A stretch of DNA of 64,000 nucleotides from a virus (IMGVR_UViG_3300033066_002255), one strand, 5' to 3'. Counted from the first letter of the stretch, positions 40,534 through 62,393 are shown. Notes: generated by a model not told the origin, from the sequence alone. Numbers and translations: made by a program.

Positions 40534-41007
40534 ATGAAATTTAAGGATTTATATTTAAGCATTTTAAGTGAAAATGAGAATTTTTTCTACGTAGATACAG
40601 ATTGCATATCTGATATCTTGGATGTAACTATTAAAAAATCAGAAGACTATGTAAAAATTGATTTCGCTACCAACTATGGTAAAAAAGGTCAATTAGTAGT
40701 AAAATATTCAAAATTTTTAAATTGGTATCTTAATCATATCAATGAATTTCCTGATGTTTTTAAATCCTTTACAAAAGAATATATTGCAAAATCTAAACAG
40801 ACTCCTGAGCTAGAAGAAGAGCCTGTTACAGAAATTGTTGATGAAGAAGGGAATTTAATTTCAAATGATGACAAGCCAAACAATTCAACAAATACAATGG
40901 TTGGCTCTAAAAATACTTGGGATTTAGAAAAAGTTTATAAATCAACTATACCAAAAAGTATTAGGTTCTACAGTGGGGACCTCGGCATCGGCATAATAAC
41001 CTGGTGA
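40534..41007 (+). CDS. Late hypothetical protein; target gene of cassette 1 (recoded 3' end)
   Basis: MKFKDLYLSILSE leader; last 14 codons strongly GC3-rich; ends in TGA. Confidence 0.75.
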   Translation: MKFKDLYLSILSENENFFYVDTDCISDILDVTIKKSEDYVKIDFATNYGKKGQLVVKYSKFLNWYLNHINEFPDVFKSFTKEYIAKSKQTPELEEEPVTEIVDEEGNLISNDDKPNNSTNTMVGSKNTWDLEKVYKSTIPKSIRFYSGDLGIGIITW

Positions 41008-41069
41008 TTGGAGTTATTATTTGGTAAATTCATTTTTATTTACTATTTATTATAAAATAGTTTTTAAAC

Positions 41070-42368
41070 ATGAGCTACAAAAGAAAAATAATTGGTACAT
41101 CCTTAGAAGAAATAAGGTTTTTTTATTTCATTAGACAAATATTTCCAGAAGCACAAAATAGATTTGTTTTTATTTATGATAAAAATAAAAGTTTTGAATT
41201 AGATATTTTTATACCACACCTAAATCTTGCAATTGAATATGATGGTGTGTATTTTCATTCTTCAAAATCAATGATAAAAAAAGATTTAAAGAAGAATGGT
41301 ATATGCAAAAAAAATGGTATAACACTAATCAGAATAAGAGAAAAGGGGTTAAGTAAAATATTTTTTCATGATATAGAATATAACTATCAATTAAAAAATA
41401 GTCACAAGGAATCTTTTAAAGGGCTTTTATGCTTTATAAAAAGTGAGTTTAATCTAAATCAATTTGAACTTAAATCAATAACAGAATTTGACTATGATAA
41501 ATTTGAAATAAGTCCTGAAGTATTGACACTTTTTAGGGAAATAGAATTTAGTAAATCACTAAAGGCTATTAATCCAAAACTATCAGAAGAATGGAATGTT
41601 GATAAAAATAATGGATTACTTCCTGATAATGTTAGCGCAAACACCGAACTTCTTGTGTGGTGGAAATGTAAAACTTGCAAAAATGAATGGCAAGCTACAG
41701 TTCATGAGAGAAACAGGGGATGGTATAATTGCATAAAATGCAGGTCTCTTGGTATTAAAAACCCAGAATTATCCAAAGAATGGCATCCAAAAAAAAATGC
41801 AGACTTAACCCCGTTTGATATTACATATGCTTCAAATAAGAAATATTGGTGGATTTGTGAAAATGGACATGAATATTTAACTTCTGTTCATACTAAAAAT
41901 AAAGGTGCTGGATGCCCATATTGTTCAGGGCATAAATTATACGAAAACAATTCTCTCGCTAAAATCAACCCAAAACTTTCAAATGAATGGCATCCAATAT
42001 TAAATGGTAATAAAACACCAGAAAATGTATTTTCAAGCTCAAGAACAGAAAAAGCTTGGTGGCAATGTTCAAATATTAAAGAGCATGCTTGGGAAGCTAA
42101 AATACATTCCAGGCACCAATTAGGCCATGGTTGTCCGTATTGTGATGGTAAAAAAGTATCAAAAGAAAATTCGTTGGCTCAAAATAGGCCAGAATTAGCA
42201 AAACAATGGCATCCAGCAAAAAACAATGAATTAACGCCTGAAAATGTAACAATTTCTTCTGGCAAAAGAGTTTGGTGGCAATGTAATTGTTGCAACCATG
42301 AGTGGCAAGCTAATATAAATAACAGAGTAAGGACTTCAGGGAAGTGTCCAAATTGTAGAAAAAAATAA
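41070..42368 (+). CDS. Putative homing endonuclease: Vsr/DUF559-like PD-(D/E)xK domain + four treble-clef zinc-ribbon (DUF4379-like) repeats
   Basis: ELDIFIPHLNLAIEYDGVYFH...LIRIRE; repeats P.L..EWH..KN..LTP..V...S....WW.C...HEW...CPYC. Confidence 0.8.
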   Translation: MSYKRKIIGTSLEEIRFFYFIRQIFPEAQNRFVFIYDKNKSFELDIFIPHLNLAIEYDGVYFHSSKSMIKKDLKKNGICKKNGITLIRIREKGLSKIFFHDIEYNYQLKNSHKESFKGLLCFIKSEFNLNQFELKSITEFDYDKFEISPEVLTLFREIEFSKSLKAINPKLSEEWNVDKNNGLLPDNVSANTELLVWWKCKTCKNEWQATVHERNRGWYNCIKCRSLGIKNPELSKEWHPKKNADLTPFDITYASNKKYWWICENGHEYLTSVHTKNKGAGCPYCSGHKLYENNSLAKINPKLSNEWHPILNGNKTPENVFSSSRTEKAWWQCSNIKEHAWEAKIHSRHQLGHGCPYCDGKKVSKENSLAQNRPELAKQWHPAKNNELTPENVTISSGKRVWWQCNCCNHEWQANINNRVRTSGKCPNCRKK

Positions 42369-42380
42369 CTATTTATTTAT

Positions 42381-42947
42381 ATGATATTAAGTGAATCATA
42401 TAAAAAGAGACTGCAAGAGCTTTCAGGTATTCAAGATGATACATATTCTTCATACAAAGGACTTGAGCCATATCAAAAAAGAAAAGAAGATTTCATAAAT
42501 TCAATAAAAAGCTTTTCAGATATTAATGATGATAAAATAAAAGAATTTATTTCTTACTTTGGGTATGAAGGATTTAATAGCGAAGAAGAAGCATATATCG
42601 ACTTGAAAGAAAAAATATCTTTTTACAAGGAAATGCCTAATCCAGTTATATTATATCGTGCAATTGGTGTAAAAAACAAAAAGATGATAAAAAATGACGA
42701 CTTAGGAGAGCATTATACACCTTATAAATGGAATATTGATACTGATATGTTAATGTCAATTGGATATGAAAATTGGGATGAAAATACGAAGCCTTATATA
42801 ATGGAGGTTTCAGTGCCGCATTCTGAAATAGATATTATTCAAACTATTATTCAAAATTTATCATTTCCAAATGAACACGAAATAAATTTAAAAAACAGCG
42901 GAAAAGGTGCTAAGTTTATAAAAGCATATAAATTAAAAGGATTTTAA
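42381..42947 (+). CDS. ADP-ribosyltransferase-like protein (R-S-E type) with leader MILSESYKKRLQELSGI
   Basis: ILYRAI...LGEHYT...YIMEVSVP...NEHEINL (R / aromatic-T / E-x-E layout). Confidence 0.5.
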   Translation: MILSESYKKRLQELSGIQDDTYSSYKGLEPYQKRKEDFINSIKSFSDINDDKIKEFISYFGYEGFNSEEEAYIDLKEKISFYKEMPNPVILYRAIGVKNKKMIKNDDLGEHYTPYKWNIDTDMLMSIGYENWDENTKPYIMEVSVPHSEIDIIQTIIQNLSFPNEHEINLKNSGKGAKFIKAYKLKGF

Positions 42948-42962
42948 ATAATAACATGGTAA
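42948..42962 (+). pseudogene. Displaced original 3' end (IITW*) of gene 40534..41007
   Basis: ATA ATA ACA TGG TAA versus ATA ATA ACC TGG TGA at 40993-41007. Confidence 0.7.
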
Positions 42963-42965
42963 AAT

Positions 42966-43427
42966 ATGAAAACAGAAAAAGATAGAATGAAAGAATTGGT
43001 TAAAATGTTCTCAAAAAAAGATGAAATATTTGCTGAGAAATCTACAAAAGATACAACCAATGAAAATCTAAAAAAAGAATATAATAGATTGCAGAATCTT
43101 GCTTCTGGTAAGGCAAATTCTACATTTAAGGAAAATTACATGAATACTGCTGATTTTGGTACTGGTGGAAATAAAGGTAAAACTGTTTCTTCTATAGCAG
43201 ATGAAATGTATAGCAATCCATCTTTATCATATCAACCTATTAGACAGCCTTTACAACCAGACGAGGGATTTGAATTAGCTATCAAAAGAGCTTTAAAATC
43301 AGGCGCTCCAGTTGATAATATGGGATTTTATGATGAAGTAAATTGGCATTTAATGAGTCTTGGTTTTCCAGCTAAAAATTCAATTGATATAAAATCAGCT
43401 ATTTTAAAACAGTTTGATAAAGACTAA
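42966..43427 (+). CDS. Hypothetical protein with leader-like helices
   Basis: EKDRMKELV and EYNRLQNLASG. Confidence 0.7.
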   Translation: MKTEKDRMKELVKMFSKKDEIFAEKSTKDTTNENLKKEYNRLQNLASGKANSTFKENYMNTADFGTGGNKGKTVSSIADEMYSNPSLSYQPIRQPLQPDEGFELAIKRALKSGAPVDNMGFYDEVNWHLMSLGFPAKNSIDIKSAILKQFDKD

Positions 43428-43951
43428 TGGAAAAAAAATTTTTGCAAGAAGTAGTTATAAAAAAACTAAATGATTTAGTTTTAGAAGTTGGTGAATTTAA
43501 TTATAATAAAAATTTCACTCCAACTGATATTGTAGCTAACAAAGCCAAACAAGCTCTATCTTCTATTGCTGGAGGGGATTCAATTGAGAAAAATACAGAA
43601 ACTGGTTCTGGTAAAGAAAAAGCAGTTGAACTTTCTCAAAAAAAGTCTCAAAATGTAGAACAAATGAAAAAAATGAAAACTTTTTTTAGTAATCACTCTG
43701 CAGATATAATAAAAATTAAACAACAGGGAGGCCCTAAGACTGAAGAAGAAAAAGGTATATATCAATCTTGGAATTTACACGGAGGAGAAGAAGGTAAAAA
43801 ATGGGTTAATGATGAATTAAAAAAATTTCATGATGAAAACCTAAGAACAAAGAAAAATCTTAGAACTGCAGGTGGAGCAGGAACAAACAAAGGTATGGGT
43901 ATATTCGATACATCTATTATGGATACCACAAAACAAAGAATTCACAGATAA
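43427..43951 (+). CDS. Conserved-looking phage hypothetical protein
   Basis: PTDIVANKAKQAL...KKMKTFFSNH...SWNLHGGEEGKKWV. Confidence 0.65.
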   Translation: MEKKFLQEVVIKKLNDLVLEVGEFNYNKNFTPTDIVANKAKQALSSIAGGDSIEKNTETGSGKEKAVELSQKKSQNVEQMKKMKTFFSNHSADIIKIKQQGGPKTEEEKGIYQSWNLHGGEEGKKWVNDELKKFHDENLRTKKNLRTAGGAGTNKGMGIFDTSIMDTTKQRIHR

Positions 43952-44002
43952 AATTTGGTTTTATTTATCTTAATTGTTATATTTTAAAAAAATAATATAA
44001 CA

Positions 44003-44596
44003 ATGAGTACAAAATTCGCAGCATCTGCATTTGCAGAATTAGAAAAATTAGAAACACCAAATTTAGATAGCCTTGAAAAAGGTTGGGAATACTTTGACGC
44101 CGATGATGAATTGGAAGAGTTTACTACTTATTTAGCTAAACACACAGGTCATCATGATGATTTAGAACCTAAAAGAATCAAGTATTTTTATACAACAAAA
44201 ATACAAAAAGATGGAGGTAGATTCGTAATTGGCTCTTTAGCAGCAAGACCAGCAGTAGAAAGAATGTTGAATGATAAGTATGATTATATGCTTTTCATTT
44301 ATTATCCTGTTTGGAAAAATTTAGACGCTAAAAATAAAGCAATTCAACTTGATAAACTTTTATGCGGTGTTGATATTCAACCAGGAAAAGATATGGCTGA
44401 AATTATTGCTAAAAAGAAGCCTACAGATTCAAGAGAATACTTAAATAACATGGCTCATTTTGGAAGTGAAGACGTTATTAAAAGCTCTGAAATTGTATCT
44501 ATGGGAGTAGAACAAATACTTAAGGATATTGCCGATAAGAAGAAGCAAGAAAAAGAGCAAAGAAAACAAAATAGTAAAAAGAATTCAGATGAATAA
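44003..44596 (+). CDS. Phage metallopeptidase-like fold, HExxH absent
   Basis: RIKYFY...YDYMLFIYYPVWKNL...QLDKLLCG where L.DHELxH is expected. Confidence 0.45.
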   Translation: MSTKFAASAFAELEKLETPNLDSLEKGWEYFDADDELEEFTTYLAKHTGHHDDLEPKRIKYFYTTKIQKDGGRFVIGSLAARPAVERMLNDKYDYMLFIYYPVWKNLDAKNKAIQLDKLLCGVDIQPGKDMAEIIAKKKPTDSREYLNNMAHFGSEDVIKSSEIVSMGVEQILKDIADKKKQEKEQRKQNSKKNSDE

Positions 44597-44888
44597 TTTT
44601 TCAAAAGAAGTTTTAAGAATAACAATAGATAAACTTAAAAATAAAGTAGAAAGTATTATGCTTAAAATTAGCATTTTACTTGATGATGAGAAAAATGTTG
44701 GTGCAGTCGATATATTAGAATCATACCTATTTGATTTAGATAAAAATAATGGAGCTTTAATTCAAGCTAAAAATTTACTATCACAATTAGAAGATGCTGA
44801 AGATATTGAGGGGCAACTTAAAAAAAAAGTAGAAATGCTTAAATCTTTATCGAGAACAAAAGATAATGATATAAAATTTACCGAATAA
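44589..44888 (+). CDS. Hypothetical protein
   Basis: ATG 44589 overlapping the upstream stop. Confidence 0.6.
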   Translation: MNNFSKEVLRITIDKLKNKVESIMLKISILLDDEKNVGAVDILESYLFDLDKNNGALIQAKNLLSQLEDAEDIEGQLKKKVEMLKSLSRTKDNDIKFTE

Positions 44889-45118
44889 TGATAATATTAC
44901 TTAAAATAATTTTGGGGCTTTTATCTGTTGCTAATATTTTAATCTTCAGATTTATTTATAAAGATTTTTATAAAATTAAAAAATCTGAAGGATATGATAG
45001 TTTATCTATTTGGGAAAAATTTAGATTTAGTTCTATTTTCTTTTTTATATTAACATCATCATTAAGCCTTCTTGTATTTTTAATTTATTTTATAGTTGTA
45101 CCTATTCAAATAATATAA
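44888..45118 (+). CDS. Small two-TM membrane protein
   Basis: Two hydrophobic runs; TAATG coupling at both ends. Confidence 0.65.
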   Translation: MIILLKIILGLLSVANILIFRFIYKDFYKIKKSEGYDSLSIWEKFRFSSIFFFILTSSLSLLVFLIYFIVVPIQII

Positions 45119-45414
45119 TGAAGAAATTTTGGAAATACTCAAAAATAAGATTCTATATTTTAAATACTATATGGAATTATAAATTTTGGCTTTTTTCTAA
45201 GAAAGTCTATAGAACGGTTACACATAATGTACCTGATATAGAAAATATACAGATGGATTATACACAAATTATGAAACCAACGATTAAAACAATAACTAGC
45301 AAAAGATTTTCTGGTTATTTTTATGAAGGTCAAATATATCATGATAATCCTGGAATACAAGGAATTGATTCGGAAACTTGGTTAGAATGGAGAAGAAAAA
45401 AACTTATTGATTAA
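45118..45414 (+). CDS. Hypothetical protein
   Basis: 98-aa ORF, coupled start. Confidence 0.6.
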   Translation: MKKFWKYSKIRFYILNTIWNYKFWLFSKKVYRTVTHNVPDIENIQMDYTQIMKPTIKTITSKRFSGYFYEGQIYHDNPGIQGIDSETWLEWRRKKLID

Positions 45415-45438
45415 AAAGCGGCATTAGCCGCTTTTTTT
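45413..45438 (+). terminator. Intrinsic terminator
   Basis: AAAAAGCGGC-ATTA-GCCGCTTTTTT. Confidence 0.85.
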
Positions 45439-45483
45439 GCTTAAATAGGTTTTTTCTGAATATTTATTAGAAAAACCTTAACT

Positions 45484-47139
45484 ATGTCCAAACAAGAAGA
45501 AATATACCCTGAAGGTTTTCCAAGACAAATGGAAAGCTTTAGTGAAGAGCAAGAGTTCAAACAGTCTACTTTGGAGATTATAAAAAATACTGCATTAGAG
45601 ACAACCGAAAAAGCGTTTGAGGAGCTTGGATATAACAAACAAGATAGTAGAGCTGGAGAGTATGGTAATGGAGAATCATATGGTGCAGGAACATCTCTTG
45701 ACCATTTTAATGTAAGAATTACATCTAATCCAAGTACAAATACTTACTTTGAAAAAATAATTTATTTTGGTGGTAAAAAAGCTATTAGCGAAGTAACCAT
45801 TGGATGGGATGCTAAAAACAAAACTATTCAAATGGCTTATAAAACTACAGAGTTTAGTGCTTTTAGAGGCTATGGTTCTGATGTAGGCCCTATGTTAATA
45901 AACAAGAGAATAAATTTTGTTATAAAAGATAAAAATAAGTTTAAAGAAAATTTAACTAAGCTTTTTAAGAATTACGCTGAAAAAGAAATTGGTTATATAA
46001 CAAGTACTAAAATTGGTATTGAAGATAAAACAGAAAAAAGTATAAACTCAATGGTAGAAACAAATATGAAAAAATTCACTTTAAAAGACCTTATGACTTC
46101 ATCAGGAGATGAATTATCAAACACTCTTGAAAATTATGTCAATGAAAACAAAGAAGGCAAAGAAAATAAGGCAAAAACTAATAACCCTGAGGTTATTGCT
46201 GCAAATTCTCCTGGTAAACTCTTATTTGATGACATTGAAGATATAAAAGATGATACAATTAAGACTGCTGCTAAAAATAAATTAAAAAAGTTTGGAGTAA
46301 TTGCATTAAATGAATTAAAACCATCTGAGAAAAAGACATTCTTTGAAGAACTTGAAAAAGAATTACAAATTGATGAAATTACTGCTTCAGGAGGAAATGC
46401 TGCTGGAGGAGCTTTTTTAACTCCTATGGCATTTAAACCAGGAGGAGATTTAAATTTAGGTCAAAGAAAATTAGAAGATACTAATTATGCCAAAGGAAAA
46501 AAAGAAAGACCATCAGTTAAAAAATCCATGGAAGAAGGAGATAGTTTCTGGAGAACTGTAGAGTTAAATCCAGGCTCTGGTTATGTCCCTAAAGGTATGG
46601 AAAAAAATTATGTTTCTGGAGAACATAATAAAAAAATAAATGAAAGCATAGAAAAGGTTAATGATAAGCTTAATAAACCAGAGCTTATAAAAGAATCATT
46701 ATTAAAAAGAAAATTCATTACAATGAACGAAAACGAAGAAAAAGGTGTAAATAAAAGATATATTGTTACTGAGCAAAGGAGTGAAGATGAACAAAATGAA
46801 AGATGGAAAAAATTAGCTATGTTCGAAACTTATACTACAATAAAAGACGCTGAAAATTTACACGAATGTGGATGCGAAGATATTGATAATTCTCATGAAG
46901 TTACAATGAATCAAGGAGAAGCTGAAAATGAAAAAGAATTTTTACAAAGAAATTCTGATGCAGAAGTTGGAGGAGAAGTTGACGGAAGAGTTGTTTTAAT
47001 GGTTCCTAAACCAAATTCTCTTTCTAATGCAATGTTTAAAGTTTTTGAAGATGACTATTTAAATGAAAATAAAACTTATATTTTAGATTTAAACTCTGGT
47101 AACTTAGTGTTAAATCCAAACTTTAAAGTAAAAAAATAA
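45484..47139 (+). CDS. Late charged protein (possible head/core protein)
   Basis: 551 aa, TATTTATT at 45461, many [ILM]xE sites (IDE, INE, IKE, LHE). Confidence 0.6.
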   Translation: MSKQEEIYPEGFPRQMESFSEEQEFKQSTLEIIKNTALETTEKAFEELGYNKQDSRAGEYGNGESYGAGTSLDHFNVRITSNPSTNTYFEKIIYFGGKKAISEVTIGWDAKNKTIQMAYKTTEFSAFRGYGSDVGPMLINKRINFVIKDKNKFKENLTKLFKNYAEKEIGYITSTKIGIEDKTEKSINSMVETNMKKFTLKDLMTSSGDELSNTLENYVNENKEGKENKAKTNNPEVIAANSPGKLLFDDIEDIKDDTIKTAAKNKLKKFGVIALNELKPSEKKTFFEELEKELQIDEITASGGNAAGGAFLTPMAFKPGGDLNLGQRKLEDTNYAKGKKERPSVKKSMEEGDSFWRTVELNPGSGYVPKGMEKNYVSGEHNKKINESIEKVNDKLNKPELIKESLLKRKFITMNENEEKGVNKRYIVTEQRSEDEQNERWKKLAMFETYTTIKDAENLHECGCEDIDNSHEVTMNQGEAENEKEFLQRNSDAEVGGEVDGRVVLMVPKPNSLSNAMFKVFEDDYLNENKTYILDLNSGNLVLNPNFKVKK

Positions 47140-47158
47140 CATAATATTAATTTATGAG

Positions 47159-47187
47159 AAAATCCACCCCAAAAAGGTGGATTTTTT
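47159..47187 (+). terminator. Intrinsic terminator
   Basis: AAAATCCACC-loop-GGTGGATTTT. Confidence 0.75.
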
Positions 47188-47237
47188 ATTTTATTATATG
47201 TATAAAAATACCTATATTTCTTTTTTAATCAATCAAT

Positions 47238-47813
47238 ATGTCCAATAAAACTTCAATCGAAAATATATCTAACATCATATTGGAACTTTTTGTTGTTCAA
47301 GAGGGTAAAGATATACGTTTAAAACTTAATCCAGGAGATAAAAGCTGGTGCGATTCTGAGAATCATACTAAATCAATGATTTTATATGAAAGAAAGAATT
47401 TAATTAAATTATCAAATACATTTGAAGAGAGTGCAATTATTATTGATATTATTATAAAACCTCAAGTTCAAGTTAAAAATATTGATTTAGAATTTAAAGT
47501 TTTACCAACAGGAGATTCTTCAGATTTTCAAAAAATAGAAGAATCTAATACTGTGAATGAACCTATTGAAGATAATCAAAATGAAATAATAACAACATTA
47601 GATGTTGATGATTCCGAAAAAGATGAAATAGATTCTGAAGATAAAAAAATAGAAAAAAAATACAAAGGCAAAAAAAGAGGTCGCAAGAAAAAAAGAGGAC
47701 CTAAACCAGGAGCTAAGAAAAAAAAGGCAAAGCAATTATCTACAATACAAGAACCTCATCAAGACTTAAATTCTAATACTACAATAATCAGAACTGGATT
47801 TACAGCAAATTAA
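47238..47813 (+). CDS. Hypothetical protein with basic AT-hook-like patch
   Basis: KKRGRKKKRGPKPGAKKKK. Confidence 0.6.
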   Translation: MSNKTSIENISNIILELFVVQEGKDIRLKLNPGDKSWCDSENHTKSMILYERKNLIKLSNTFEESAIIIDIIIKPQVQVKNIDLEFKVLPTGDSSDFQKIEESNTVNEPIEDNQNEIITTLDVDDSEKDEIDSEDKKIEKKYKGKKRGRKKKRGPKPGAKKKKAKQLSTIQEPHQDLNSNTTIIRTGFTAN

Positions 47814-47818
47814 TTATA

Positions 47819-48082
47819 ATGATTGTTAGAGAATTTAAAATAAATAAAATTAGCTTCAGAAAAAGAAAATTAACATTATTACAACATAAACTTAGAGTTG
47901 TAATGAAATGTTATACTATACATAATTTTTTAATAAATGATGAAAACAACTCCTTTAGTTTTCAAAAAACTTTTAAAAAAAGCGGAATACAAATAATTGA
48001 CTCTACTATAAATACTGGTAAGTTTAATGTAATAGATTTAGATGAATCAAATGAAATAATACTTCAAATAAATGTTGACTAA
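47819..48082 (+). CDS. Hypothetical protein
   Basis: 87-aa ORF in operon. Confidence 0.55.
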   Translation: MIVREFKINKISFRKRKLTLLQHKLRVVMKCYTIHNFLINDENNSFSFQKTFKKSGIQIIDSTINTGKFNVIDLDESNEIILQINVD

Positions 48083-48821
48083 GAGAGAAGAATATATAAA
48101 GAGTTTTTTCTTTAATGAAAAAAGTAATATTATTTCTGAAATAGAGGCTGAAAATATAGCTTTAAAAATTTCTAAAATTGGAGAAAACATTGGATTTATT
48201 GGAACAAATATAAGTTCCAACAAAGAAAAGGTCGAAAAACGCAAACATAAATATGATGTTTGGATTGCAAAAGAAACTAAGAAAGATATGTCAATACTTG
48301 AAAAAGATATTGATATAAGACTGATAATAGATTGGGCAATAAATACTAAAGCAAATCTTTTTGAATATAGTTTTTATGAAGCTATGCTAGAACAAGAAAA
48401 ATGGCATTTACAAATAATGATGTCTCATAATATAGAAAAAATAAATATACCTTCTATAGATGAAAAAAGAATTGTTTTTAGATTTAGCGATAAAAATCAT
48501 TTTTTATATTTACTCAATGAATCAGATTTAAATTACGAAGGCAATTGTATGGGCCATTGTGTATCTGGAACTAATTATAAATCAAGAGTAAAAAATAATT
48601 TATCTCTAATTTTATCTTTAAGAGATAAAAAAAACGAACCTCATTTAACTCTTGAAATAGATGTTAAAAATGCTTTTCTAATACAACAACAAGGTAAGGG
48701 AAATGCTCAAATAAAAGATAAATATTTACTACTCATGAAAGAGTTTATATTATTTGCAAGCAACTATAAACTTATTGAAAATCGTGAGACATTAAAGTTT
48801 TTAAATTTACATTTAATTTAA
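48072..48821 (+). CDS. PcfJ-like domain protein
   Basis: LNYEGNCMGHCV..Y...ILSLRDKKNEPHLTLEI...QQQGKGN. Confidence 0.75.
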   Translation: MLTKREEYIKSFFFNEKSNIISEIEAENIALKISKIGENIGFIGTNISSNKEKVEKRKHKYDVWIAKETKKDMSILEKDIDIRLIIDWAINTKANLFEYSFYEAMLEQEKWHLQIMMSHNIEKINIPSIDEKRIVFRFSDKNHFLYLLNESDLNYEGNCMGHCVSGTNYKSRVKNNLSLILSLRDKKNEPHLTLEIDVKNAFLIQQQGKGNAQIKDKYLLLMKEFILFASNYKLIENRETLKFLNLHLI

Positions 48822-49777: not shown

Positions 49778-49778
49778 T

Positions 49779-50003
49779 TTATTTATTTTTTATTTTTTCT
49801 AATATCTCTGCATGTTCTTGTTCTATTGCATGCAATTCTTTCATTATTTCATTTATAGTAGCCATTCCTGATATATGTTTATCAGAAACTTTATCCTCTT
49901 TATCAAGACCTTCTAAGATTGTAAAAATAACATCTTTTTTTTCTTGATGAGAGTTTGCTAAATCACTTGCTTCTTTTAAAAGCTCTTGCTTATTTTTACT
50001 CAT
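49779..50003 (-). CDS. Hypothetical protein
   Basis: 74-aa ORF in the minus-strand operon. Confidence 0.6.
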   Translation of the reverse strand: MSKNKQELLKEASDLANSHQEKKDVIFTILEGLDKEDKVSDKHISGMATINEIMKELHAIEQEHAEILEKIKNK

Positions 50004-50004
50004 A

Positions 50005-54505: not shown

Positions 54506-55700
54506 TGATTCTTTCGTTTTTGTATTGATTAATAATATTTACAATTCCAGCTATTTCTAACTCTTCAGTATAAGGCTCAAGAGTTTTTTCATAAGATTCT
54601 TGAATTTCTGGTAAATCCATTTCTCCTGCTAACCACTTATCAATAGCTACTCCTAATAATTCTGCAGTAGTAAAGATATCTCCATTAGCTGTCCAGAAAC
54701 CATTATTTTCATTTATATATTCTTTACCTCCAAATGGAGCCCATCCAACAACATGCGTCCCAGAAGCCATAGCTTCTAATGGTAAAGTACCAAAGCCAGC
54801 AATATCATCTGTATATAATAAAAAAGCACAAGAAGCAAGTCTTTCTGCGAATTGTTCTCTATCCATTCCTTGTAACTCTACAAATCTAACCCATTTTAAA
54901 TGAGGATAGAAAGCATAAAAATTCTTGATAATACTGTGAGTTTTCATTTTATTTTCTTGACCTCTACTACCAGTAAATGCAACCATAGGAAATTTTTCAG
55001 ATAATTTAGATGGTACTTTAAATAACTTTCTATTGATACCTTGTTTAAAGTTTTTAATATTTAATCCTGGCATTGTTGAATTAATATATTCAGTAATAGC
55101 ATCAGATACACTAATTACATCTTGAATACCGAAATGTTGCCATTTTTGACCAGGCTGCATTGCTAATAAAACATAAAACCAACTTTGAGCAAGAACAATT
55201 CTTTTACAAGAAACTTGCATAGTTTTTTGCATTACATTTGGATATCCTTCTGGAATAATTAAAAAGTCTTCAGGACTAACATTTAAATTAGAACATTTAA
55301 AAGGAATATATTCTCCTTTTTCATTTTTGTCTTCACTAAAGTAAATATCTTTATCACCTAATGGAATAAACTCAATACCAGTTAAGTCAAAATCAACCCA
55401 AGATGGATTAAATTTATCATAAACATCTATTTGAGTTTTTGCTTTCATAGAAGCCTCATAAGAAGCTCTTTGATTAATCATAGCTGGTTCATAAACAATT
55501 TTAATATTATGACCTGCGTCTTTTAAGGTTTTTGCTGATTTTAGTAAAACCCCTACTCCTCCACTTGGAGTATTCATGTGTGGACAATAAAAAATAATGC
55601 TAAATTGATTATCTCTTATTTTGTTAATAGTTAAATCAATGAATTCATTATGACTTAACTTTTTTTCTTCTACAACTGGTGTTGCTGCTTCGTTTTCCAT
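54477..55700 (-). CDS. Glycosyltransferase, GT-B/GT4-like
   Basis: PSGGVGV, IIPEG, AGFGTLPLEAMASGTHVVG. Confidence 0.8.
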   Translation of the reverse strand: MENEAATPVVEEKKLSHNEFIDLTINKIRDNQFSIIFYCPHMNTPSGGVGVLLKSAKTLKDAGHNIKIVYEPAMINQRASYEASMKAKTQIDVYDKFNPSWVDFDLTGIEFIPLGDKDIYFSEDKNEKGEYIPFKCSNLNVSPEDFLIIPEGYPNVMQKTMQVSCKRIVLAQSWFYVLLAMQPGQKWQHFGIQDVISVSDAITEYINSTMPGLNIKNFKQGINRKLFKVPSKLSEKFPMVAFTGSRGQENKMKTHSIIKNFYAFYPHLKWVRFVELQGMDREQFAERLASCAFLLYTDDIAGFGTLPLEAMASGTHVVGWAPFGGKEYINENNGFWTANGDIFTTAELLGVAIDKWLAGEMDLPEIQESYEKTLEPYTEELEIAGIVNIINQYKNERINELEGIKTK

Positions 55701-55785
55701 ATATTTATTTCAATTATTAATGGTTAATTATTTTAAATATAGAAACGTAAAATAATAAAGTAAATAGTTTTTTAAAAAAATAAAA

Positions 55786-55812
55786 AAAAGCCATCAAAAA
55801 TTTGATGGCTTT
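55786..55812 (-). terminator. Intrinsic terminator
   Basis: AAAGCCATCAAA-AA-TTTGATGGCTTT with an A run on the left (T run on minus strand). Confidence 0.8.
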
Positions 55813-55832
55813 AGAAAAAATAATATTATTTT

Positions 55833-56993
55833 TTAAACAATTCCACTTGAATCATTACTGTTTTGAGATTTATTATTTAAGTTTGACAAAGCATCTTTAG
55901 CCTTTTGTATATCTGCATCTGATACTGTACCGCTTAAATCAAGAGATAATGCATCTTCTCCTATGTTGTTACCACTTACTACTTCAGATAAGTAACTATC
56001 ATTTGTAAATACTCCAGCACTTCTATACATTGCTCTTTTTCCAAGAGAAGAACTTAAGGAATTAAAAGCAAGAGTAGAGCCAACACCTGAAGAAACATAA
56101 TTAGAAGTATTTTGATAAGCAATACCTAAATTACTTGCTGTCATAACAGCATTTTGATTTGCTCCTATATATGTAAATGTCCACATTTTAGTAGCTTCAA
56201 GACTTTCAATTAAATCTTTAATTGAAGATGCGTTATATTCTTTTGAAGCGTTTTCAAAACCATCTGTTAATATAACTACATATACATCTGCTTCTCCAGA
56301 ATCTATTTTAGAAGAAATTCTATTTTTTAAATTCTTAACACTTATTCCAATTGCATCATGTAAAGCTGTAGTTGCATCAGGTCTATAATCTTCTTCAGTA
56401 AGCTTTCTTAATTTATCTGAAGATACATTTTCAAATAAAGGTGTAATCTCATCATCAAATTTAATTATGCTTACAAAATATTTTTGGTCAGGATATTTTT
56501 CACTAAGATTTTTTATTGTTTGAATTTGTTCATTCAAACCTCCAAGTGTTTCTTTTTTTGCCCCTTCCATAGAACCACTTTCATCTACAATTAAAAGATA
56601 GTGAGTTTCTTTAGGTGTAACAGTTGTTGTAGTAGTCGTTGTAACAGTTGTTGTTGTAACAACTTTCTTCACTCTATTTAAAACTTTTCTAGCAGCTTTT
56701 TTACCTTTTTTAGGAGCTGCAGTTTTCTTAGGAGTTACTTTCTTTTTAGGAGCTGCTTTCTTTTTAGGAGCAGCAGTCTTTTTAGGAGCTACTTTCTTTT
56801 TAGAAGCTGCAGTTTTCTTAGGAGCTACCTTCTTTTTAGGGGCTGCTTTCTTTTTAGGAGCAGCAGTCTTTTTAGGAGCTACTTTCTTTTTAGAAGCTGC
56901 AGTTTTCTTAGGAGCTACCTTCTTTTTAGGGGCTGCTTTCTTTTTTGGAGCAGCAGTCTTTTTAGGAGACTTTTGTTTTGTTTTTGCTTTCAT
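55833..56993 (-). CDS. Histone H1-like (KKAAP repeats) - Thr linker - von Willebrand factor A fusion
   Basis: About 15 KK(K)xAP hexamers, poly-Thr tract, LIVDESGSM MIDAS, TALHDAI, VILTDGFEN, YIGAN. Confidence 0.85.
   Translation of the reverse strand: MKAKTKQKSPKKTAAPKKKAAPKKKVAPKKTAASKKKVAPKKTAAPKKKAAPKKKVAPKKTAASKKKVAPKKTAAPKKKAAPKKKVTPKKTAAPKKGKKAARKVLNRVKKVVTTTTVTTTTTTTVTPKETHYLLIVDESGSMEGAKKETLGGLNEQIQTIKNLSEKYPDQKYFVSIIKFDDEITPLFENVSSDKLRKLTEEDYRPDATTALHDAIGISVKNLKNRISSKIDSGEADVYVVILTDGFENASKEYNASSIKDLIESLEATKMWTFTYIGANQNAVMTASNLGIAYQNTSNYVSSGVGSTLAFNSLSSSLGKRAMYRSAGVFTNDSYLSEVVSGNNIGEDALSLDLSGTVSDADIQKAKDALSNLNNKSQNSNDSSGIV
56761..56940. repeat. Perfect 2 x 90-bp tandem repeat within an 18-bp-unit array
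   Basis: 56761-56850 is identical to 56851-56940; partial copies on both sides. Confidence 0.9.
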
Positions 56994-57073
56994 GTGTTTG
57001 CTTTTTTTTAATTATTTTTTTAATTTCTTTAGCTGTCGCTACTTTTCCTTTTTTCATATTATTATTTTTTATT

Positions 57074-57823
57074 TTATTCTACTGTATTAAATATTTTTTT
57101 AAAAAAATCTTCATTGTAAACTTCTTTTATGCTTTGAAAAGAATAATCTGCTGCATCCCATTGATTAAAAGAATGATTAATTTTAATACTCACTTTATCT
57201 GCTGGTTTTGTTTGAAATGTTGTTGGCATAATGTCAATTACAGCATCGCAATGATTCCACTTTTCAGAGTCGGAATTTAAATGTTTAATATTTTTTATTC
57301 TACAATTAGTAGAACCTAAAAATGCATATGTTGCTGTAATAGCTTTGCTTTTAAGAGTAGTAAATAATACTACATCAAATAAACCTTTTGAAAGGCCTAA
57401 AAATTGTATTTTATTAACTGTTTCCATTGCGCCAGGATATTCAGGAGCCATTCCAAAAATTTGATAAGGATAAGTTTCATAAAGAAAATCTTCTAAATTT
57501 TGTTTTGGAGACATTTCAATAGGTGTATAATCAACTCCTTCTTCAATATCTAACTTAGACATTTTAATCGTTTTTGAATCGAACTTATAATGATTCAATA
57601 AATCAAAAGAATCTACTGGAAGAGTTATAAGCTCTCTTTCTTTATCTTTAATTCTTTGTTCTATAGCTTTTTCTTCTTCCTCGCTATAAGCCTTATATGC
57701 CATATTCTCTTCATCCATAGCTACAATGCTTGGATTGTGAATATACATTTTTCTATACTGTTTGTCAAATTGACTATGGAAATCTCTGATTATTCCATCT
57801 ATATTTATTCCTAATGTTTTCAT
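57074..57823 (-). CDS. HAD-superfamily 5'(3')-nucleotidase-like protein, degenerate motif I
   Basis: ATG 57823; LGINIDGIIRDF (N replaces first D), YPGAME, CDAVID. Confidence 0.6.
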   Translation of the reverse strand: MKTLGINIDGIIRDFHSQFDKQYRKMYIHNPSIVAMDEENMAYKAYSEEEEKAIEQRIKDKERELITLPVDSFDLLNHYKFDSKTIKMSKLDIEEGVDYTPIEMSPKQNLEDFLYETYPYQIFGMAPEYPGAMETVNKIQFLGLSKGLFDVVLFTTLKSKAITATYAFLGSTNCRIKNIKHLNSDSEKWNHCDAVIDIMPTTFQTKPADKVSIKINHSFNQWDAADYSFQSIKEVYNEDFFKKIFNTVE

Positions 57824-57839
57824 GCTAAAATATAATAAA

Positions 57840-57892
57840 TAAAAAAGACTAAACAAAATTTTTATAGTTTAAATTTTGTTTAGTCTTTTTTA
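57840..57892. terminator. Long inverted repeat / terminator
   Basis: AAAAAAGACTAAACAAAATTT...AAATTTTGTTTAGTCTTTTTT. Confidence 0.8.
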
Positions 57893-57911
57893 TTTGACTT
57901 ATTATATCTTG

Positions 57912-59489
57912 CTATTTTAAAGTGGTATATTCTAAACCATCTTTTGTATGAAAGAAAACAATATGCTGCAACTTACCAAGTCTATTAATAATTCCATGAC
58001 TATTAACCCAGGCGCTTGCTCCTACATTATAACCAACACGAAGATATGTTGAAGTACCTACGCTTGCAGCTCCAGCTATTCTACCTATAGTATGAGAATG
58101 TCCTGTCAAACTTTTGCTTGATAATCTACTATATTGAGATATACTACCTCTACTACCAGAAGCTCCAATGTGACCATGAACACTCATAAGCCAACCTTTG
58201 ACTTTTACGCTATCATTATGGCCAAGACACTTAAATTTAGGATATTTTTGATTAATTATATATGGAACTACTCCGTTATCTGCTAATCCCTTAAGTCTTG
58301 CCATAGAATATTCCATATATGGAATAGCATTTTTTAAAGTAGTCATTTTTCTCCAATCAGTAGTTTCAAGAAACTTATCAATATGTTCATCATGATTACT
58401 TTTTACAATATAAACATTGTATTTTTCAAAAGGTTTTAGCCATTCAATCATTTCTTTTACTTCTTTAGCTAAATCATTAGCTCCAGTCATTTCTAATTTG
58501 TGCAATAAAAATGGGTCTTTTAGGTTATGATGACTAACACTTTGAGAATCCATAATATCATGTAGAAATACTTTTTTAGGCTTTAATCTTTTAAAAAGAT
58601 TATTTAAAGTAACATCTGTAACTCTTGGGTCACAATGTCTAACATGAATATCTCCAAGAGCAATAGCTTCTACTTCAGTTTCTTTTGAAGTTTTTTCTCC
58701 ATCTACAAAAGTTTCTAAATCAATAAATTCTCCTTTTGAATTTGCTTGAACTTGTCTGAAAAAGAAAGTTTCTTTGTCCTTAATTTCAACAACTGCAAAT
58801 CCAAGAGAATGATGAAATTCACCCTTCTTTCCTTGTTTACTATCTGTATAATTTTGTAAAGTACAAGCTCCAGTAGTAAACATAATTTTATGTCTCTCTC
58901 CTTCTAAAACAGGCAACGTTTTTAATTCAATACGAGGATGTCCAACAACACAAGAGTGGTCTCCTGTCATACCTTCTAATCCTTGGAGTGGTTGAGAACT
59001 TGTAGGTTGTATTTTAATATCTGATAATACAGAAACTGCATTATTAAAATTATTTCTATTTAATGTTAAATAAGGTAAAATAGCTTCATCCCACCAATCA
59101 TCATTTTCTTGTTTATCAGTCCAAACGCTTGTTGGATTTTTAAAGCGATATGGAATTACTAAAATTTCAGCATCATATTTTTTTGCAAGAGTTTCCATAC
59201 CTTTTACAAAATTTTTGTGAATGCTTGTTGCATTTTGTGCCGCCGTAATAAAGAAAATCTTTTTATCTTTATCGTGACTTTTATTTTTGGCAACTTTTAG
59301 GATTTCTGGTTCTACAGCACCTTTTTCTGCAAATCCTAATTTGTTAGAACACCATATCCTAACAGTCCTTTCGGATTTGCCAAAAAAATCCATTAAAATT
59401 TTCATTCTTTCATCCCAAGCAAGTGTTTTATCAGTATAAACACCTTTGGCATATTTGATTTGGTCTTCTGTTAAATCTTTAAAATTCAT
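57912..59489 (-). CDS. Calcineurin-like metallophosphoesterase with N-terminal HTH-like region
   Basis: LGDIH, LHDIMD, SNHD, HGH, TGHSH. Confidence 0.8.
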   Translation of the reverse strand: MNFKDLTEDQIKYAKGVYTDKTLAWDERMKILMDFFGKSERTVRIWCSNKLGFAEKGAVEPEILKVAKNKSHDKDKKIFFITAAQNATSIHKNFVKGMETLAKKYDAEILVIPYRFKNPTSVWTDKQENDDWWDEAILPYLTLNRNNFNNAVSVLSDIKIQPTSSQPLQGLEGMTGDHSCVVGHPRIELKTLPVLEGERHKIMFTTGACTLQNYTDSKQGKKGEFHHSLGFAVVEIKDKETFFFRQVQANSKGEFIDLETFVDGEKTSKETEVEAIALGDIHVRHCDPRVTDVTLNNLFKRLKPKKVFLHDIMDSQSVSHHNLKDPFLLHKLEMTGANDLAKEVKEMIEWLKPFEKYNVYIVKSNHDEHIDKFLETTDWRKMTTLKNAIPYMEYSMARLKGLADNGVVPYIINQKYPKFKCLGHNDSVKVKGWLMSVHGHIGASGSRGSISQYSRLSSKSLTGHSHTIGRIAGAASVGTSTYLRVGYNVGASAWVNSHGIINRLGKLQHIVFFHTKDGLEYTTLK

Positions 59490-59512
59490 AATAAAATGCT
59501 ATTCTTTTTTTG

Positions 59513-59543
59513 CAAATATAATACAAAAAAATAAAATAACAAA
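59513..59543 (-). promoter_or_regulatory. Bacteroidota-type sigma70 promoter TTTG-N19-TATATTTG
   Basis: Exact -33/-7 consensus upstream of 59489. Confidence 0.75.
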
Positions 59544-59567
59544 TTTTATGCGGGATTATTTTTTGAT

Positions 59568-60746
59568 TTACTCAGTTACAACTTTAATTATACAGTCACA
59601 CATCCTATTAATTTCTTCTTCTGTTAACTTAGGATGATTAGGTATATACATACCGCACTTATCGACTTTATTTACATTTTGTAATTCATTTCTACCGTAT
59701 TTTTTTATGTAAAAAGGCTGTGTACCCATAGAGCCACAAATAAGAGGTCTACATTCTACATTATTTTCGATTAAAGCTTTTGCAATTGCATTTTTTTCTT
59801 CTTCAGAGCTTGCAATTATTGGTATACAAAAACTTGCAGTAAAACTTCCTTCAACTTCTTGAGGAAACCATGTATATGGAGATAATTTTTCCTTAAAAAT
59901 TTGAAAGTTTTTATTTCTTTGAGCAATCATTTCATCAACCTTTTTTAGTTGTTCAATACCAATAACTGCTTGTAAATCTGTAGCTCTAACATTAAAGCCA
60001 GGAACATAAAAAGTATATAATGCAGAAAAATCATCTATTCCCCATTGCTCTCTTAATTCTTTTTGTCTTTCAGTATCAAGGTCTCTGTCCCAACCATGAC
60101 TTCTTAATTGCTTAAGCATATCATACACAGCTTTATCATTTGTACATATCATACCACCTTCAATGGTACTCATAGTATGTCCAAAATATGTAGAAAAAGA
60201 AGACATAAGTCCAAAATTTCCAAGTTTTATATCATTATATTTTGTACCTTGAGATTCGCAATTATCTTCTAATAATATTACACCATATTTTTTACAAAGC
60301 TCAACAATCTCATTCATTTTAGGAGAAAGTCCTAAAACTGAAACAAGAATCATTGCAGATGGCTTGTAGTTTTCAAAAATAATTTTAAGATGTTCTATGT
60401 CTACAGCTAAATTAGTAGGGTCTATATCTACAAGTATAGGGTCAAAACCTAATTGCATAACTGGAGCTAAATCTGTTGCCCAGCCAAGAGATGGTACTAC
60501 AATTCTTTTATTTCTAAGTTTATACATTTCAATTAATGCTGCAAGCATTAATAAATTTGCAGATGAACCAGAATTAACAAATACAGAATATTTACAACCA
60601 ATCCATTTAGACCACATTTCTTCAAATTCACGAACTTTATTTCCCTGAGTTAATCTTGGATATGTCTTTAACCATTCAATCAAATTGTCTATGTCGTCTT
60701 TGTCAATTGTATCTTTAACTAAAGTAATCTTTTCTGGATTTGTCAT
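59568..60746 (-). CDS. colD: DegT/DnrJ family PLP enzyme, ColD-like GDP-4-keto-6-deoxymannose 3-dehydratase
   Basis: VNSGSSANLL, EDNCES, STYFGHTMSTIEGG (His at the PLP-Lys position), RSHGWDRDL, PGFNVR. Confidence 0.75.
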   Translation of the reverse strand: MTNPEKITLVKDTIDKDDIDNLIEWLKTYPRLTQGNKVREFEEMWSKWIGCKYSVFVNSGSSANLLMLAALIEMYKLRNKRIVVPSLGWATDLAPVMQLGFDPILVDIDPTNLAVDIEHLKIIFENYKPSAMILVSVLGLSPKMNEIVELCKKYGVILLEDNCESQGTKYNDIKLGNFGLMSSFSTYFGHTMSTIEGGMICTNDKAVYDMLKQLRSHGWDRDLDTERQKELREQWGIDDFSALYTFYVPGFNVRATDLQAVIGIEQLKKVDEMIAQRNKNFQIFKEKLSPYTWFPQEVEGSFTASFCIPIIASSEEEKNAIAKALIENNVECRPLICGSMGTQPFYIKKYGRNELQNVNKVDKCGMYIPNHPKLTEEEINRMCDCIIKVVTE

Positions 60747-61741
60747 AAATCATTTATTTTTTTATTTATATTATTTTTTTCTATAAATTCGTTATAAGCC
60801 TTTGCGGCTTCTAATTCAGAATTATATGAACCAATATAATTATGTTTTCCATTAAAATAAACAGAAGATTCCCATTTTTGAGGCTTTTTTTTAAAGCTTA
60901 CTCCAAAATATTTAGAAGTTCTTTTTTTGTTAATATCTATTTTTTCCCAATTTGGGATTATGTTTAATTGAGCACTATTACCATATAATTCTAAAGCCTT
61001 TTTGTTATACGCTATCGCAGCATGAATTTCTTCTTTAAAGTGTCCTATGATAATAGATTTTCTATTAAATCTTACTGTTGCTCTCCAGAGTTTATCTTTA
61101 TTATCAATATAACTAACTCCAATATATTTTGAGCTTGTGTTTGAATTTTTAAAACCTAAAAGAGTTTTGGAAATTTTATTTTTTGTATCTTCTGAAGGCG
61201 GTAATCGTCTACTTTGAGATTCGCTCATTTTTATTTTAGATTCTGTAGAATGAGAACGACCTAAATTAGCTTTAGAAATTTTTTGACTTGTTTGCTTTTT
61301 AATGTCTTCTGGAATATTTTTATATGATATTCTTCTATTTTCTTTTTCTTGTTCAGATACTTTTCGTCCTAAGCATTTTCCCTTATTTGAATTGCCTATT
61401 TTATTTTTAGTTTCTTGAGACAATATCCTACCAGAAACGCCCTCTCCTCCATCTGTTGAATTAACTAAAATTCCCATGTTTTTATCTGCTCTACCAAAAA
61501 GTTTAATATAGAATTTTTCAGAAAAGTTACATAACTCTTCATTTTTACAAATCTTAATTAATTTAATTTCTGGGATTAAACTTTGTTTTTTAAGAGAATT
61601 AAGCCAATTGGTTTTATGAGTTTTTGTTTTATCTTTGAGATGACCATTAAACAAACGTCTATTTAAATTTTTAGTTGTTTTACCTACATATCTAACCTCA
61701 TTTGTTCTTGGGTCTATTAAAAAATATATTTTATATTCCAT
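60743..61741 (-). CDS. GIY-YIG homing endonuclease with NUMOD3-like repeats and two AP2 domains
   Basis: ATG 61741; KIYFL..YVGKT..RR..H..E..N; SQETKNKI/STESKIKMS; SKYIGVS...EIHAAIAYN and SKYFGVS...ELEAAKAYN. Confidence 0.88.
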   Translation of the reverse strand: MEYKIYFLIDPRTNEVRYVGKTTKNLNRRLFNGHLKDKTKTHKTNWLNSLKKQSLIPEIKLIKICKNEELCNFSEKFYIKLFGRADKNMGILVNSTDGGEGVSGRILSQETKNKIGNSNKGKCLGRKVSEQEKENRRISYKNIPEDIKKQTSQKISKANLGRSHSTESKIKMSESQSRRLPPSEDTKNKISKTLLGFKNSNTSSKYIGVSYIDNKDKLWRATVRFNRKSIIIGHFKEEIHAAIAYNKKALELYGNSAQLNIIPNWEKIDINKKRTSKYFGVSFKKKPQKWESSVYFNGKHNYIGSYNSELEAAKAYNEFIEKNNINKKINDL

Positions 61742-61827
61742 GTTGCATTTTATTATAAATAGAATAAAAATTCCCAAACTGACAAAAGGCTTAAAATTTA
61801 AAACATTTTTTTGAAATATTTATTTAA

Positions 61828-62286
61828 ATGAATATAAGGAAAATTATTAGAGAAGTTTTGACTAATCATATAAAGAATTTAAATAAACCATATATAGTTA
61901 ATATTAATGGTGAAATGTTTTATCACCAAACCAATTGTAATAATATAAAATCCATAAAAGATAATGGCTTTAAAAGTGATTTACATAATGGTCAAGCAAG
62001 ATTTACTCATGGAGTATATTTTTTAAATCATCCAGAAGGAAGATATGGAGATTGTACGTTACAAGCTAATATTTATGGAAATTTTTTAGATTTCAGAGAT
62101 GAAAATGATATTTTGGGAGATAAATGGATTAATTTTAGAGACTCTTATGAATGGGATAATTATATAGATTTAACAATTAAAATGAGACAAGACAATAAAG
62201 ATATAGATGGTCTTATTTTTGATAATCTATTAGTTGTTTGGTATCCAGAAAAATGTATTAAAAATATTTCTGAATATAATTTGTAA
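61828..62286 (+). CDS. ADP-ribosyltransferase-fold protein (H-Y type) with leader MNIRKIIREVL
   Basis: FYHQT...SIKDNGF...GVYFL...YG...DGLIF..LVVWYP. Confidence 0.55.
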   Translation: MNIRKIIREVLTNHIKNLNKPYIVNINGEMFYHQTNCNNIKSIKDNGFKSDLHNGQARFTHGVYFLNHPEGRYGDCTLQANIYGNFLDFRDENDILGDKWINFRDSYEWDNYIDLTIKMRQDNKDIDGLIFDNLLVVWYPEKCIKNISEYNL

Positions 62287-62294
62287 ACATAAAA

Positions 62295-62393
62295 TTAAAA
62301 CAAGTTGTTCTCAATTAAATTGTCAATATCATCTTTATCAATGGTATCCTTAACTAAAGGAATTCTTTCAAGGTTTTCATTATTTTCTGACAT
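62295..62393 (-). pseudogene. Stub of the original colD 5' end (MSENNENLERIPLVKDTIDKDDIDNLIENNLF*)
   Basis: 16 residues identical to ColD residues 9-24; lies in operon position right after the fcl-like gene. Confidence 0.9.

Follow-up and report, generated by a model that had tools for sequence, protein, structure and literature searches.

Can a selfish nuclease gene bring an unrelated, effector-like gene into a new phage genome, and do the neighbouring gene ends keep a record of the move? Two loci in a 64,000-nucleotide (nt) stretch of viral DNA, IMGVR_UViG_3300033066_002255 (hereafter the window, part of a contig of about 159 kb), raise this question. At each, a gene for a homing-type endonuclease lies beside a small gene for a protein resembling ADP-ribosyltransferases (ARTs) and beside a duplicated end of a neighbouring gene. 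A first-pass annotation had proposed that the two were dedicated cassettes of a new mobile system, in which an endonuclease and its ART-like cargo repair the target gene with a recoded terminus. What it had observed proved largely correct, and its interpretation partly so. We favour a different reading, to which we give a probability of about 0.6: both loci hold free-standing homing endonuclease genes that arrived by intronless homing from diverged donors, and the ART-like genes hitchhiked with them.

Under intronless homing, the nuclease would cut the neighbouring gene in a genome that lacks the nuclease gene, and the break would be repaired off the nuclease-bearing genome, with everything between two regions of homology copied over. 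Duplicated gene ends would be the scars of repair from a diverged donor whose homology was usable on one side only: the recipient's old gene end would be left as a stub, and the donor's end would become the working end, which may resist cutting. The ART-fold genes would be independent accessory genes, each with its own late-promoter-like motif and exchangeable leader, carried inside the converted tract. We compared the window with relatives (L-numbers) that are metagenomic contigs throughout; a DNA search of a deposited-phage collection found no close relative of the window phage, whose DNA is AT-rich (about 25-31% G+C in the window).

Duplicated gene ends at two nuclease loci

Locus 2 lies in a glycan operon, between a colD-like and an fcl-like gene. 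Its features are listed here with coordinates counted from the first letter of the window, protein lengths in amino acids (aa) and expectation values as E.

59568 to 60746, minus strand: colD-like DegT/DnrJ/EryC1 aminotransferase gene, the target gene (Pfam, E 1.9e-68)
60675 to 60722, minus strand: working version, at the colD start, of the 16 codons repeated in the stub
60743 to 61741, minus strand: homing endonuclease 2 (nuclease 2), with GIY-YIG, NUMOD3 and two AP2 domains (Pfam; reading frame open to 61777)
61797 to 62427, no strand: 631-bp segment comprising the stub and the 152-aa gene (blastn block boundaries against L072 and L075)
61817 to 61824, plus strand: TATTTATT motif, 3 nt before the ATG of the 152-aa gene
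61828 to 62286, plus strand: gene of the leader-bearing 152-aa protein, with a predicted H-Y-D ART fold (model, Foldseek, VIA and profile)
62295 to 62393, minus strand: stub, made up of the native upstream region and 28 first codons of an older colD-like gene, four foreign codons and a stop
62441 to 63376, minus strand: fcl-like epimerase/reductase gene, dependent on nicotinamide adenine dinucleotide (NAD) (Pfam Epimerase, E 1.1e-47)

Along the minus strand, fcl is followed by a 47-nt gap, the 32-codon open reading frame (ORF) of the stub, the oppositely oriented 152-aa gene, nuclease 2 and colD. In alignment, the stub and its upstream region match the sequence around the colD start in L001; the position of the stub next to fcl matches the inferred empty allele. 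Over 16 codons it encodes the same peptide as the working colD start while differing at eight nucleotides, all of them silent (8/8), an outcome that arose in none of 200,000 random sets of eight substitutions (chance <5e-6). The two copies must therefore have diverged as functional genes in separate genomes, and the death of the stub is recent. The synonymous recoding that the first-pass annotation saw in the working copy is at this locus best read, from comparison of the sequences, as ordinary divergence between donor and recipient, because any two relatives show 4-10 silent differences over the same 16 codons.

We envisage that a genome with fcl directly before colD was cut in the 5' region of colD. 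The donor would have carried an ART gene, the nuclease, colD and a different upstream gene, with homology on the colD side only, and a single such event would leave the stub and bring nuclease 2 and the 152-aa gene together. Among relatives, L072 and L075 have the order fcl, nuclease, colD, with neither stub nor ART gene; compared with them, the right-hand boundary of the window's extra 631 bp lies 55 nt before the start of nuclease 2. L066 has a 35-codon colD stub of its own between fcl and the nuclease, together with an unrelated 97-aa ORF (no Pfam match) between the nuclease and colD. In L071 a different 188-aa gene, with a leader of the same type, occupies the same divergent slot upstream of nuclease 2. 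The protein-language-model clusters nearest to its product are ART-PolyVal (score 0.95, on language-model features alone), and its match to the profile of the 152-aa family is at motif level only (E 0.0073, probability 5%).

The assignment of nuclease 2 to the homing endonucleases rests on a GIY-YIG domain (PF01541, 28.7 bits against a cut-off of 22.6) and on two kinds of DNA-binding module, NUMOD3 (27.0 bits) and AP2 (38.6 bits), each over its cut-off. Although the reading frame is open to 61777, translation probably begins at the ATG at 61741, since the relatives begin at the corresponding ATG; the stop codon overlaps the start of colD. Homologues with 52-82% identity lie directly before colD in L071, L072-L074 and L075, and in L066 with the 97-aa ORF between; nuclease 2 is not present at the colD site in L001-L004.

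Some further observations concern this region. Endonuclease-like genes lie just past colD in three relatives (L075:6077-6910, with LAGLIDADG_2 and NUMOD3 domains; L001:7906-8742; L066:6823-7638), so the glycan operon is rich in homing endonucleases. One metagenome, JGI sample 3300020577, holds both L005, with this phage's cassette-2 region and an identical 152-aa protein, and L002, with a 483-aa gene between fcl and colD; the two locus 2 types therefore co-occur in one sample. Around the operon the window encodes a T5 A1-like 'DNA transfer protein' (57912-59489, minus strand; phrog_1745, 1.5e-140), a VWA-domain protein (55833-56993, minus strand) and a PcfJ-like protein (48072-48821, plus strand). 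Elsewhere, in L019, a GIY-YIG-looking ORF (1079-1750) is nested in another frame within a 581-aa C-5 DNA methylase-like ORF (820-2565), and may be a nuclease or intron insertion into the methylase gene.

At locus 1 the target is a gene of 157 aa, for whose product neither Pfam nor PHROG gave a match. GC3 denotes G or C at third codon positions.

40534 to 41007, plus strand: 157-aa gene without assigned function, target of cassette 1 (homologues in L011, L020 and L076)
40963 to 41007, plus strand: GC3-rich working 3' end of that gene, 14 codons and TGA (GC3 count)
41007 to 41027, plus strand: proximal AT-rich remnant of the old end, IGVIIW-stop (in another frame, read from the sequence)
41070 to 42368, plus strand: homing endonuclease 1 (nuclease 1), with a Vsr/DUF559-like PD-(D/E)xK domain and four DUF4379 zinc fingers (Pfam, PHROG)
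42370 to 42377, plus strand: TATTTATT motif, 3 nt before the ATG of the 188-aa gene
42381 to 42947, plus strand: gene of the leader-bearing 188-aa protein, with a predicted R-S-E ART fold in residues 85-188 (model, structure searches)
42948 to 42962, plus strand: distal IITW-stop copy, a weak candidate for a stranded old end (13-nt repeat of 40993-41005)
42966 to 43427, plus strand: conserved gene, directly after the 157-aa homologue in empty alleles (L020 and L076)

Third positions are G or C in 11 of the 14 codons of the working 3' end, compared with a GC3 of 0.18 elsewhere in the 157-aa gene, and no other of the 19,123 14-codon stretches in the window's 66 ORFs reaches that count. The same end has 9 of 14 in L011, with different codons, and 3-4 of 14 in the empty alleles. 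L011 also has a longer remnant, LGVRVIIW-stop, at the place equivalent to that of the proximal remnant; the GC3-rich end and the AT-rich remnant occur in cassette-bearing alleles and not in empty ones. RNA structure does not account for the GC-rich end, with z-scores of -0.71 for the window and -0.45 for L011. Selection against cleavage, or against recombination between repeats, may have maintained a GC-recoded end in two diverged lineages.

Both loci had been credited with an old gene end stranded on the far side of the cassette. This stands for locus 2, with both genes lying between the stub and the working start; the old copy of locus 1 lies in tandem, right after the working end and 5' of nuclease 1, and not across the cassette. 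The distal IITW-stop is weak evidence of a stranded end, being indistinguishable from a chance match: the surrounding 2.7 kb has many repeats of 12-16 nt with 88-100% identity. L010 and L011 lack this copy, although it does resemble the way the empty L076 allele ends.

Nuclease 1 and the 188-aa gene are found together at this site in the window and in L011/L028, while the L010 contig begins within nuclease 1 and continues with the nuclease 3' end, the 188-aa gene and the homologue of the gene at 42966. The nuclease 1 site is thus occupied in the window, L010, L011 and L028, and unoccupied in L020 and L076, where the 157-aa homologue is followed after 15-18 nt by the 42966 homologue, the empty allele that had been predicted for locus 1. 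Between the window and L011, protein identity is 40-48% in the flanks, 64.5% in nuclease 1 and 79.5% in the 188-aa protein; between the window and L010 it is 59-72% in the flanks, 81% in the nuclease end and 94% in the 188-aa protein. Because the cassette is better conserved than its flanks, and because L076 is empty despite flanks closer to the window (48-65%) than those of L011, the comparisons fit a horizontal transfer in which nuclease 1 and the 188-aa gene entered the same site as one block.

Nuclease 1 belongs to a different family from nuclease 2, as had been claimed, and domain and family searches support a homing type for both. Its four DUF4379 zinc fingers are of treble-clef type (E 5.8e-68), and it matches phrog_3339, 'homing endonuclease', at 3.7e-15. 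The N-terminal domain matches DUF2726 (22.2 bits) and MTES_1575 (20.7 bits) below the Pfam cut-offs, and the match to I-Bth0305I is weak (E 0.65 only). The combination of a Vsr-like nuclease with four DUF4379 fingers is an uncharacterised architecture.

Two predicted ART-fold families with exchangeable leaders

What do the nucleases carry? Structure prediction agrees with the ART-like character first proposed for the partner genes, clearly for the 152-aa protein and to a moderate degree for the 188-aa protein.

For the 152-aa protein, a word-indexed search yielded 14 homologues and an exhaustive profile search 29 representative clusters; H33, Y64 and D127 are invariant in the 14 sequences. The AlphaFold model has a predicted local distance difference test score (pLDDT) of 86.7, and its top Foldseek matches in the PDB are all ARTs (PARPs, diphtheria-toxin relatives, exotoxin A and Tpt1). 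With VIA, the model superposes on the catalytic domain of diphtheria toxin at Z 9.4 (root-mean-square deviation 3.4 over 120-126 residues), on NatT and MbcT at about Z 8 and on PARP1 at Z 7.8. The family profile matches the PARP13 domain at E 1.4e-4, with the H and Y motifs aligned, and D127 may be the catalytic acid. Matches to the Pfam ART families are sub-threshold, at 15.6 bits for Tox-ART-HYD1 (cut-off 25) and 13.7 for PARP (26.7). On the strength of the Z-scores, the Foldseek and profile matches and the invariant H-Y-D residues, we treat the protein as having a clear predicted H-Y-D ART fold outside every curated family.

Domains of this type are also modules inside proteins of 2,900-4,000 residues (P0176, P0177, P0183 and P0185 among the larger ART-like proteins). 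In L009 (6001-7424 and downstream) a 152-aa homologue adjoins a gene for a Macro domain, a fold that binds or hydrolyses ADP-ribose, with Acb1-like and Tad3-like genes near; these surroundings look like an anti-defence neighbourhood.

The 188-aa family is larger, with more than 100 homologues, and R93, E165 and E167 (the latter two forming ExE) are invariant in 72 sequences. The model reaches a pLDDT of 91.4, and Foldseek gave poor E-values with it (0.2 or worse). For residues 85-188, R-S-E ARTs rank top both in re-alignment and in an exhaustive search independent of Foldseek, at Z 5-6.4 (<8), the matches being TreX, TreTu, PltA, the A1 chains of heat-labile and cholera toxin, pertussis S1, Scabin and ParT; ARTs make up most of the top 50 in the exhaustive structure search with the 188-aa protein. 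The Arg and Glu-x-Glu motifs of the R-S-E class have candidate matches in the family, and the counterpart of Ser-Thr-Ser is ambiguous. A search of the PDB with the family profile found no ART by sequence, and the ESM Atlas returned only unnamed viral clusters. We have moderate confidence in the ART fold predicted for residues 85-188. Both ART-fold proteins are probably NAD-using effectors, and both may transfer ADP-ribose.

Members of the 188-aa family occur in other settings as well. In L049:2981-4555 a 188-type domain is fused behind an ART-PolyVal domain in a 524-aa protein. L014 (4905-7027) and L015 (4014-6136) each contain a 2,123-bp IS1595-family element with 45-bp terminal inverted repeats, in which a 188-aa homologue is a passenger beside a DDE_Tnp_IS1595 transposase; the two copies are 100% identical in unrelated contexts, and the element is absent from the window. 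Among the four nearest ORFs of 26 other non-redundant 188-aa loci, a mobility gene was found at just two (2/26; one IS1595 transposase and one Vsr-like protein), so the family is mostly free-standing, yet mobility genes have picked it up on more than one occasion. We set aside L023, where a 564-aa Vsr-like protein is encoded two genes from a 188-aa homologue: it is non-syntenic with the window, and only the nuclease core matches.

Both partner genes share a start-site motif and a type of leader, as the first-pass annotation had noted. The window has five copies of TATTTATT that end 3 nt before an ATG, against 0.42 expected, and four of them lie at ORF starts, those of the 188-aa and 152-aa genes included. 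TATTTAT precedes both nuclease genes by 20-26 nt (26 nt for nuclease 1), as it does many other window genes: (A)TATTTAT lies 19-26 nt 5' of about 20 ORF starts, such as those at 11980, 17045, 19128, 35415, 40534, 45484 and 51744. The distance from (A)TATTTAT to the ATG is only 11 nt in four genes (8099, 34595, 42381 and 61828), a spacing that would give very short or leaderless transcripts.

On the window's 188-aa protein the leader reads 'LSESYKKR.QEL.G', and three homologues in the 152-aa family start with it too; an 'IRK.IREVL'-type leader is found on the 152-aa protein, on the unrelated ART-like protein of L071 and on the L011 homologue of the 43427 gene. By these sequence matches, the leaders are modular and appear to be exchanged between unrelated families. 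Each contains an L/I-x-E motif (L-Q-E or I-R-E), which resembles the prohead-protease sites in T4 internal proteins and Alt, and the leader may direct packaging into the capsid. A non-exhaustive set of Pfam and PHROG scans, covering 28 further window ORFs, contained no prohead protease and no third endonuclease.

Two other observations bear on the phage itself. A related 153-kb viral contig has a completeness rating of only 52%, so the window phage may well be a jumbo phage. The window also encodes translation initiation factor IF-3 (36743-37261, minus strand; N domain E 6.6e-22, C domain E 1.7e-28), a gene found likewise on the related phage contigs L078 and L079.

Alternative explanations

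Several observations weigh against intronless homing as we have outlined it. At locus 2, the relatives searched did not include an intact empty fcl-colD allele, and back-translated patterns of the duplicated peptide and of the stub's own start had zero matches in viral contigs. Nuclease 2 and colD are no better conserved among relatives (76-79% nucleotide identity) than fcl (75%), so two separate recent insertions, of the nuclease first and of the 152-aa gene later, are possible. At locus 1, the old remnant sits between the working end and nuclease 1, an order not expected from a simple one-step insertion. The 188-aa family, moreover, is highly conserved everywhere, with about 79% identity even in the unrelated IS1595 context, and its high identity at locus 1 is therefore weak evidence of recent transfer.

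The dedicated, co-evolved cassette, in which nuclease and ART effector come with a deliberately recoded end and the recoding was selected for immunity to self-cleavage, seems to us unlikely. It draws on the fact that each nuclease found in the window lies beside a gene for an ART-fold protein, on L071, which puts a different ART-like gene with the same leader type in the same slot, on the locus 1 end that is unique in the window and GC-rich with other codons in L011, and on the IS1595 element that carries a 188-aa homologue too. Yet the linkage of nuclease and ART gene, which holds at locus 1 where the block is present or absent together, breaks down at locus 2: five relatives (L066 and L072-L075) have nuclease 2 with no ART gene beside it, the extra gene in L066 being the unrelated 97-aa ORF, and 152-aa homologues occur without a nuclease at other loci (L007, L009, L077 and L078-L080). 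As each occurs without the other, the pairing of nuclease 2 with the 152-aa gene is not obligatory. Both ART families are mostly without nucleases, the silent differences at locus 2 are of the size ordinary between relatives, and the claim of an obligate pairing, for which independent carriage in relatives would be fatal, falls in general.

A wider reading, which we likewise regard as unlikely, makes small leader-tagged ART effectors a preferred cargo of selfish mobility genes in large phages, and the end-duplication design an adaptation for intron-less insertion in coding sequence. On this view a diverged or GC-recoded copy would protect the cassette from its own nuclease and from loss through recombination between repeats, and the arrangement would pass anti-host or anti-defence enzymes from one co-infecting phage to another. 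Three mobility genes are found with the ART-fold effectors described here, for a Vsr-like nuclease, for a GIY-YIG nuclease and for an IS1595 transposase.

We think it rather improbable that the loci are hot spots where ART-like genes and nucleases inserted independently in the same permissive gaps and never moved together. The gap 5' of nuclease 2 is indeed variable, the window, L071, L072 and L075 share its right-hand boundary about 55 nt ahead of the nuclease start, and ART homologues are found as single genes at many unrelated loci. But at locus 1 two diverged lineages have both genes and no relative was seen with just one of them, while at locus 2 a still-intact stub lies outside both genes, for which a single recent event is simpler. 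A functional partnership, in which the ART-like protein aids the spread of the nuclease by modifying a competitor's DNA or repair proteins, or protects the carrier genome, is very improbable: some enzymes with an ART fold do modify DNA (the weaker fold matches include DarT and pierisin) and the association recurs with three kinds of mobility gene, but most family members have no mobility gene near, and the leaders and the fusions into very large multi-domain proteins suggest delivered effectors.

Relation to known systems

How far, then, does intronless homing with hitchhiking ART-like genes match what is known? Intronless homing with co-conversion of flanking DNA has been described for the free-standing phage homing endonucleases Seg and Mob of T4 (PMC2988022). 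The window resembles these in having nuclease genes between conserved genes, patchily present in relatives and with late-promoter-like motifs upstream, and in a carrier allele that differs from the target by polymorphisms, with flanking DNA probably co-converted. Unlike Seg and Mob, it keeps visible duplicated ends (the 28-codon stub and the tandem remnant) and has a promoter-bearing ART-like gene inside the converted tract. Movement of cargo genes by phage homing endonuclease genes (HEGs) has also been described, in HEG-islands (Barth, Dunham and Seed 2023; PMC10448857). There, as here, nuclease genes bound exchanged segments and their neighbours are cargo better conserved than the rest of the genome; HEG-islands, however, have at least two bracketing nucleases and essential cargo, whereas each window locus has one nuclease and one small accessory gene. 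HEGs influence anti-defence loci by other routes as well (PMC13096335).

Partial terminal duplications of atp6 and cob lie beside homing endonuclease ORFs in the mitochondria of Endoconidiophora resinifera (PMC6279837). In both systems the host gene still works and a duplicated end piece is found beyond the endonuclease ORFs. The fungal cases are mitochondrial, with C-terminal pieces, degenerate LAGLIDADG ORFs and no cargo gene described, whereas the window is phage DNA with one N-terminal and one C-terminal duplication and an extra gene enclosed. With intronless homing and co-conversion, HEG cargo and mitochondrial terminal duplications all published before, the loci do not amount to the new kind of mobile system that was first proposed.

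The ART-like genes invite two further comparisons. The window has small effector-like genes with a short leader, an L/I-x-E motif and a late-type promoter motif, much as T4 does in Alt, which is an ART, and in its internal proteins: head-packaged effectors with a short N-terminal leader containing L/I-x-E and with late-type promoters. The window proteins have no sequence relation to those of T4, and neither of the two ART families has a Pfam model of its own. IS1595-family elements with passenger genes offer the other parallel, as the 188-aa homologue is such a passenger in L014 and L015; that element, unlike a homing gene, moves by transposition. What is new here is the pairing of nucleases with two uncharacterised ART-fold families, the exchangeable leaders of these families, an ART 'slot' upstream of nuclease 2 and a GC3-recoded gene end.

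Under the reading we favour, the window documents in its own sequence how a homing endonuclease brought an accessory, effector-like gene into a new genome and left a scar that can still be read. It defines two uncharacterised ART-fold families with exchangeable leaders, one of which also rides an insertion sequence, and it offers two nuclease/target pairs open to direct in vitro testing. At locus 1, the GC3-rich replacement end may be a natural case of target-site recoding for self-immunity. More broadly, the two loci support the view that selfish nucleases influence the set of counter-host genes shared among phages.

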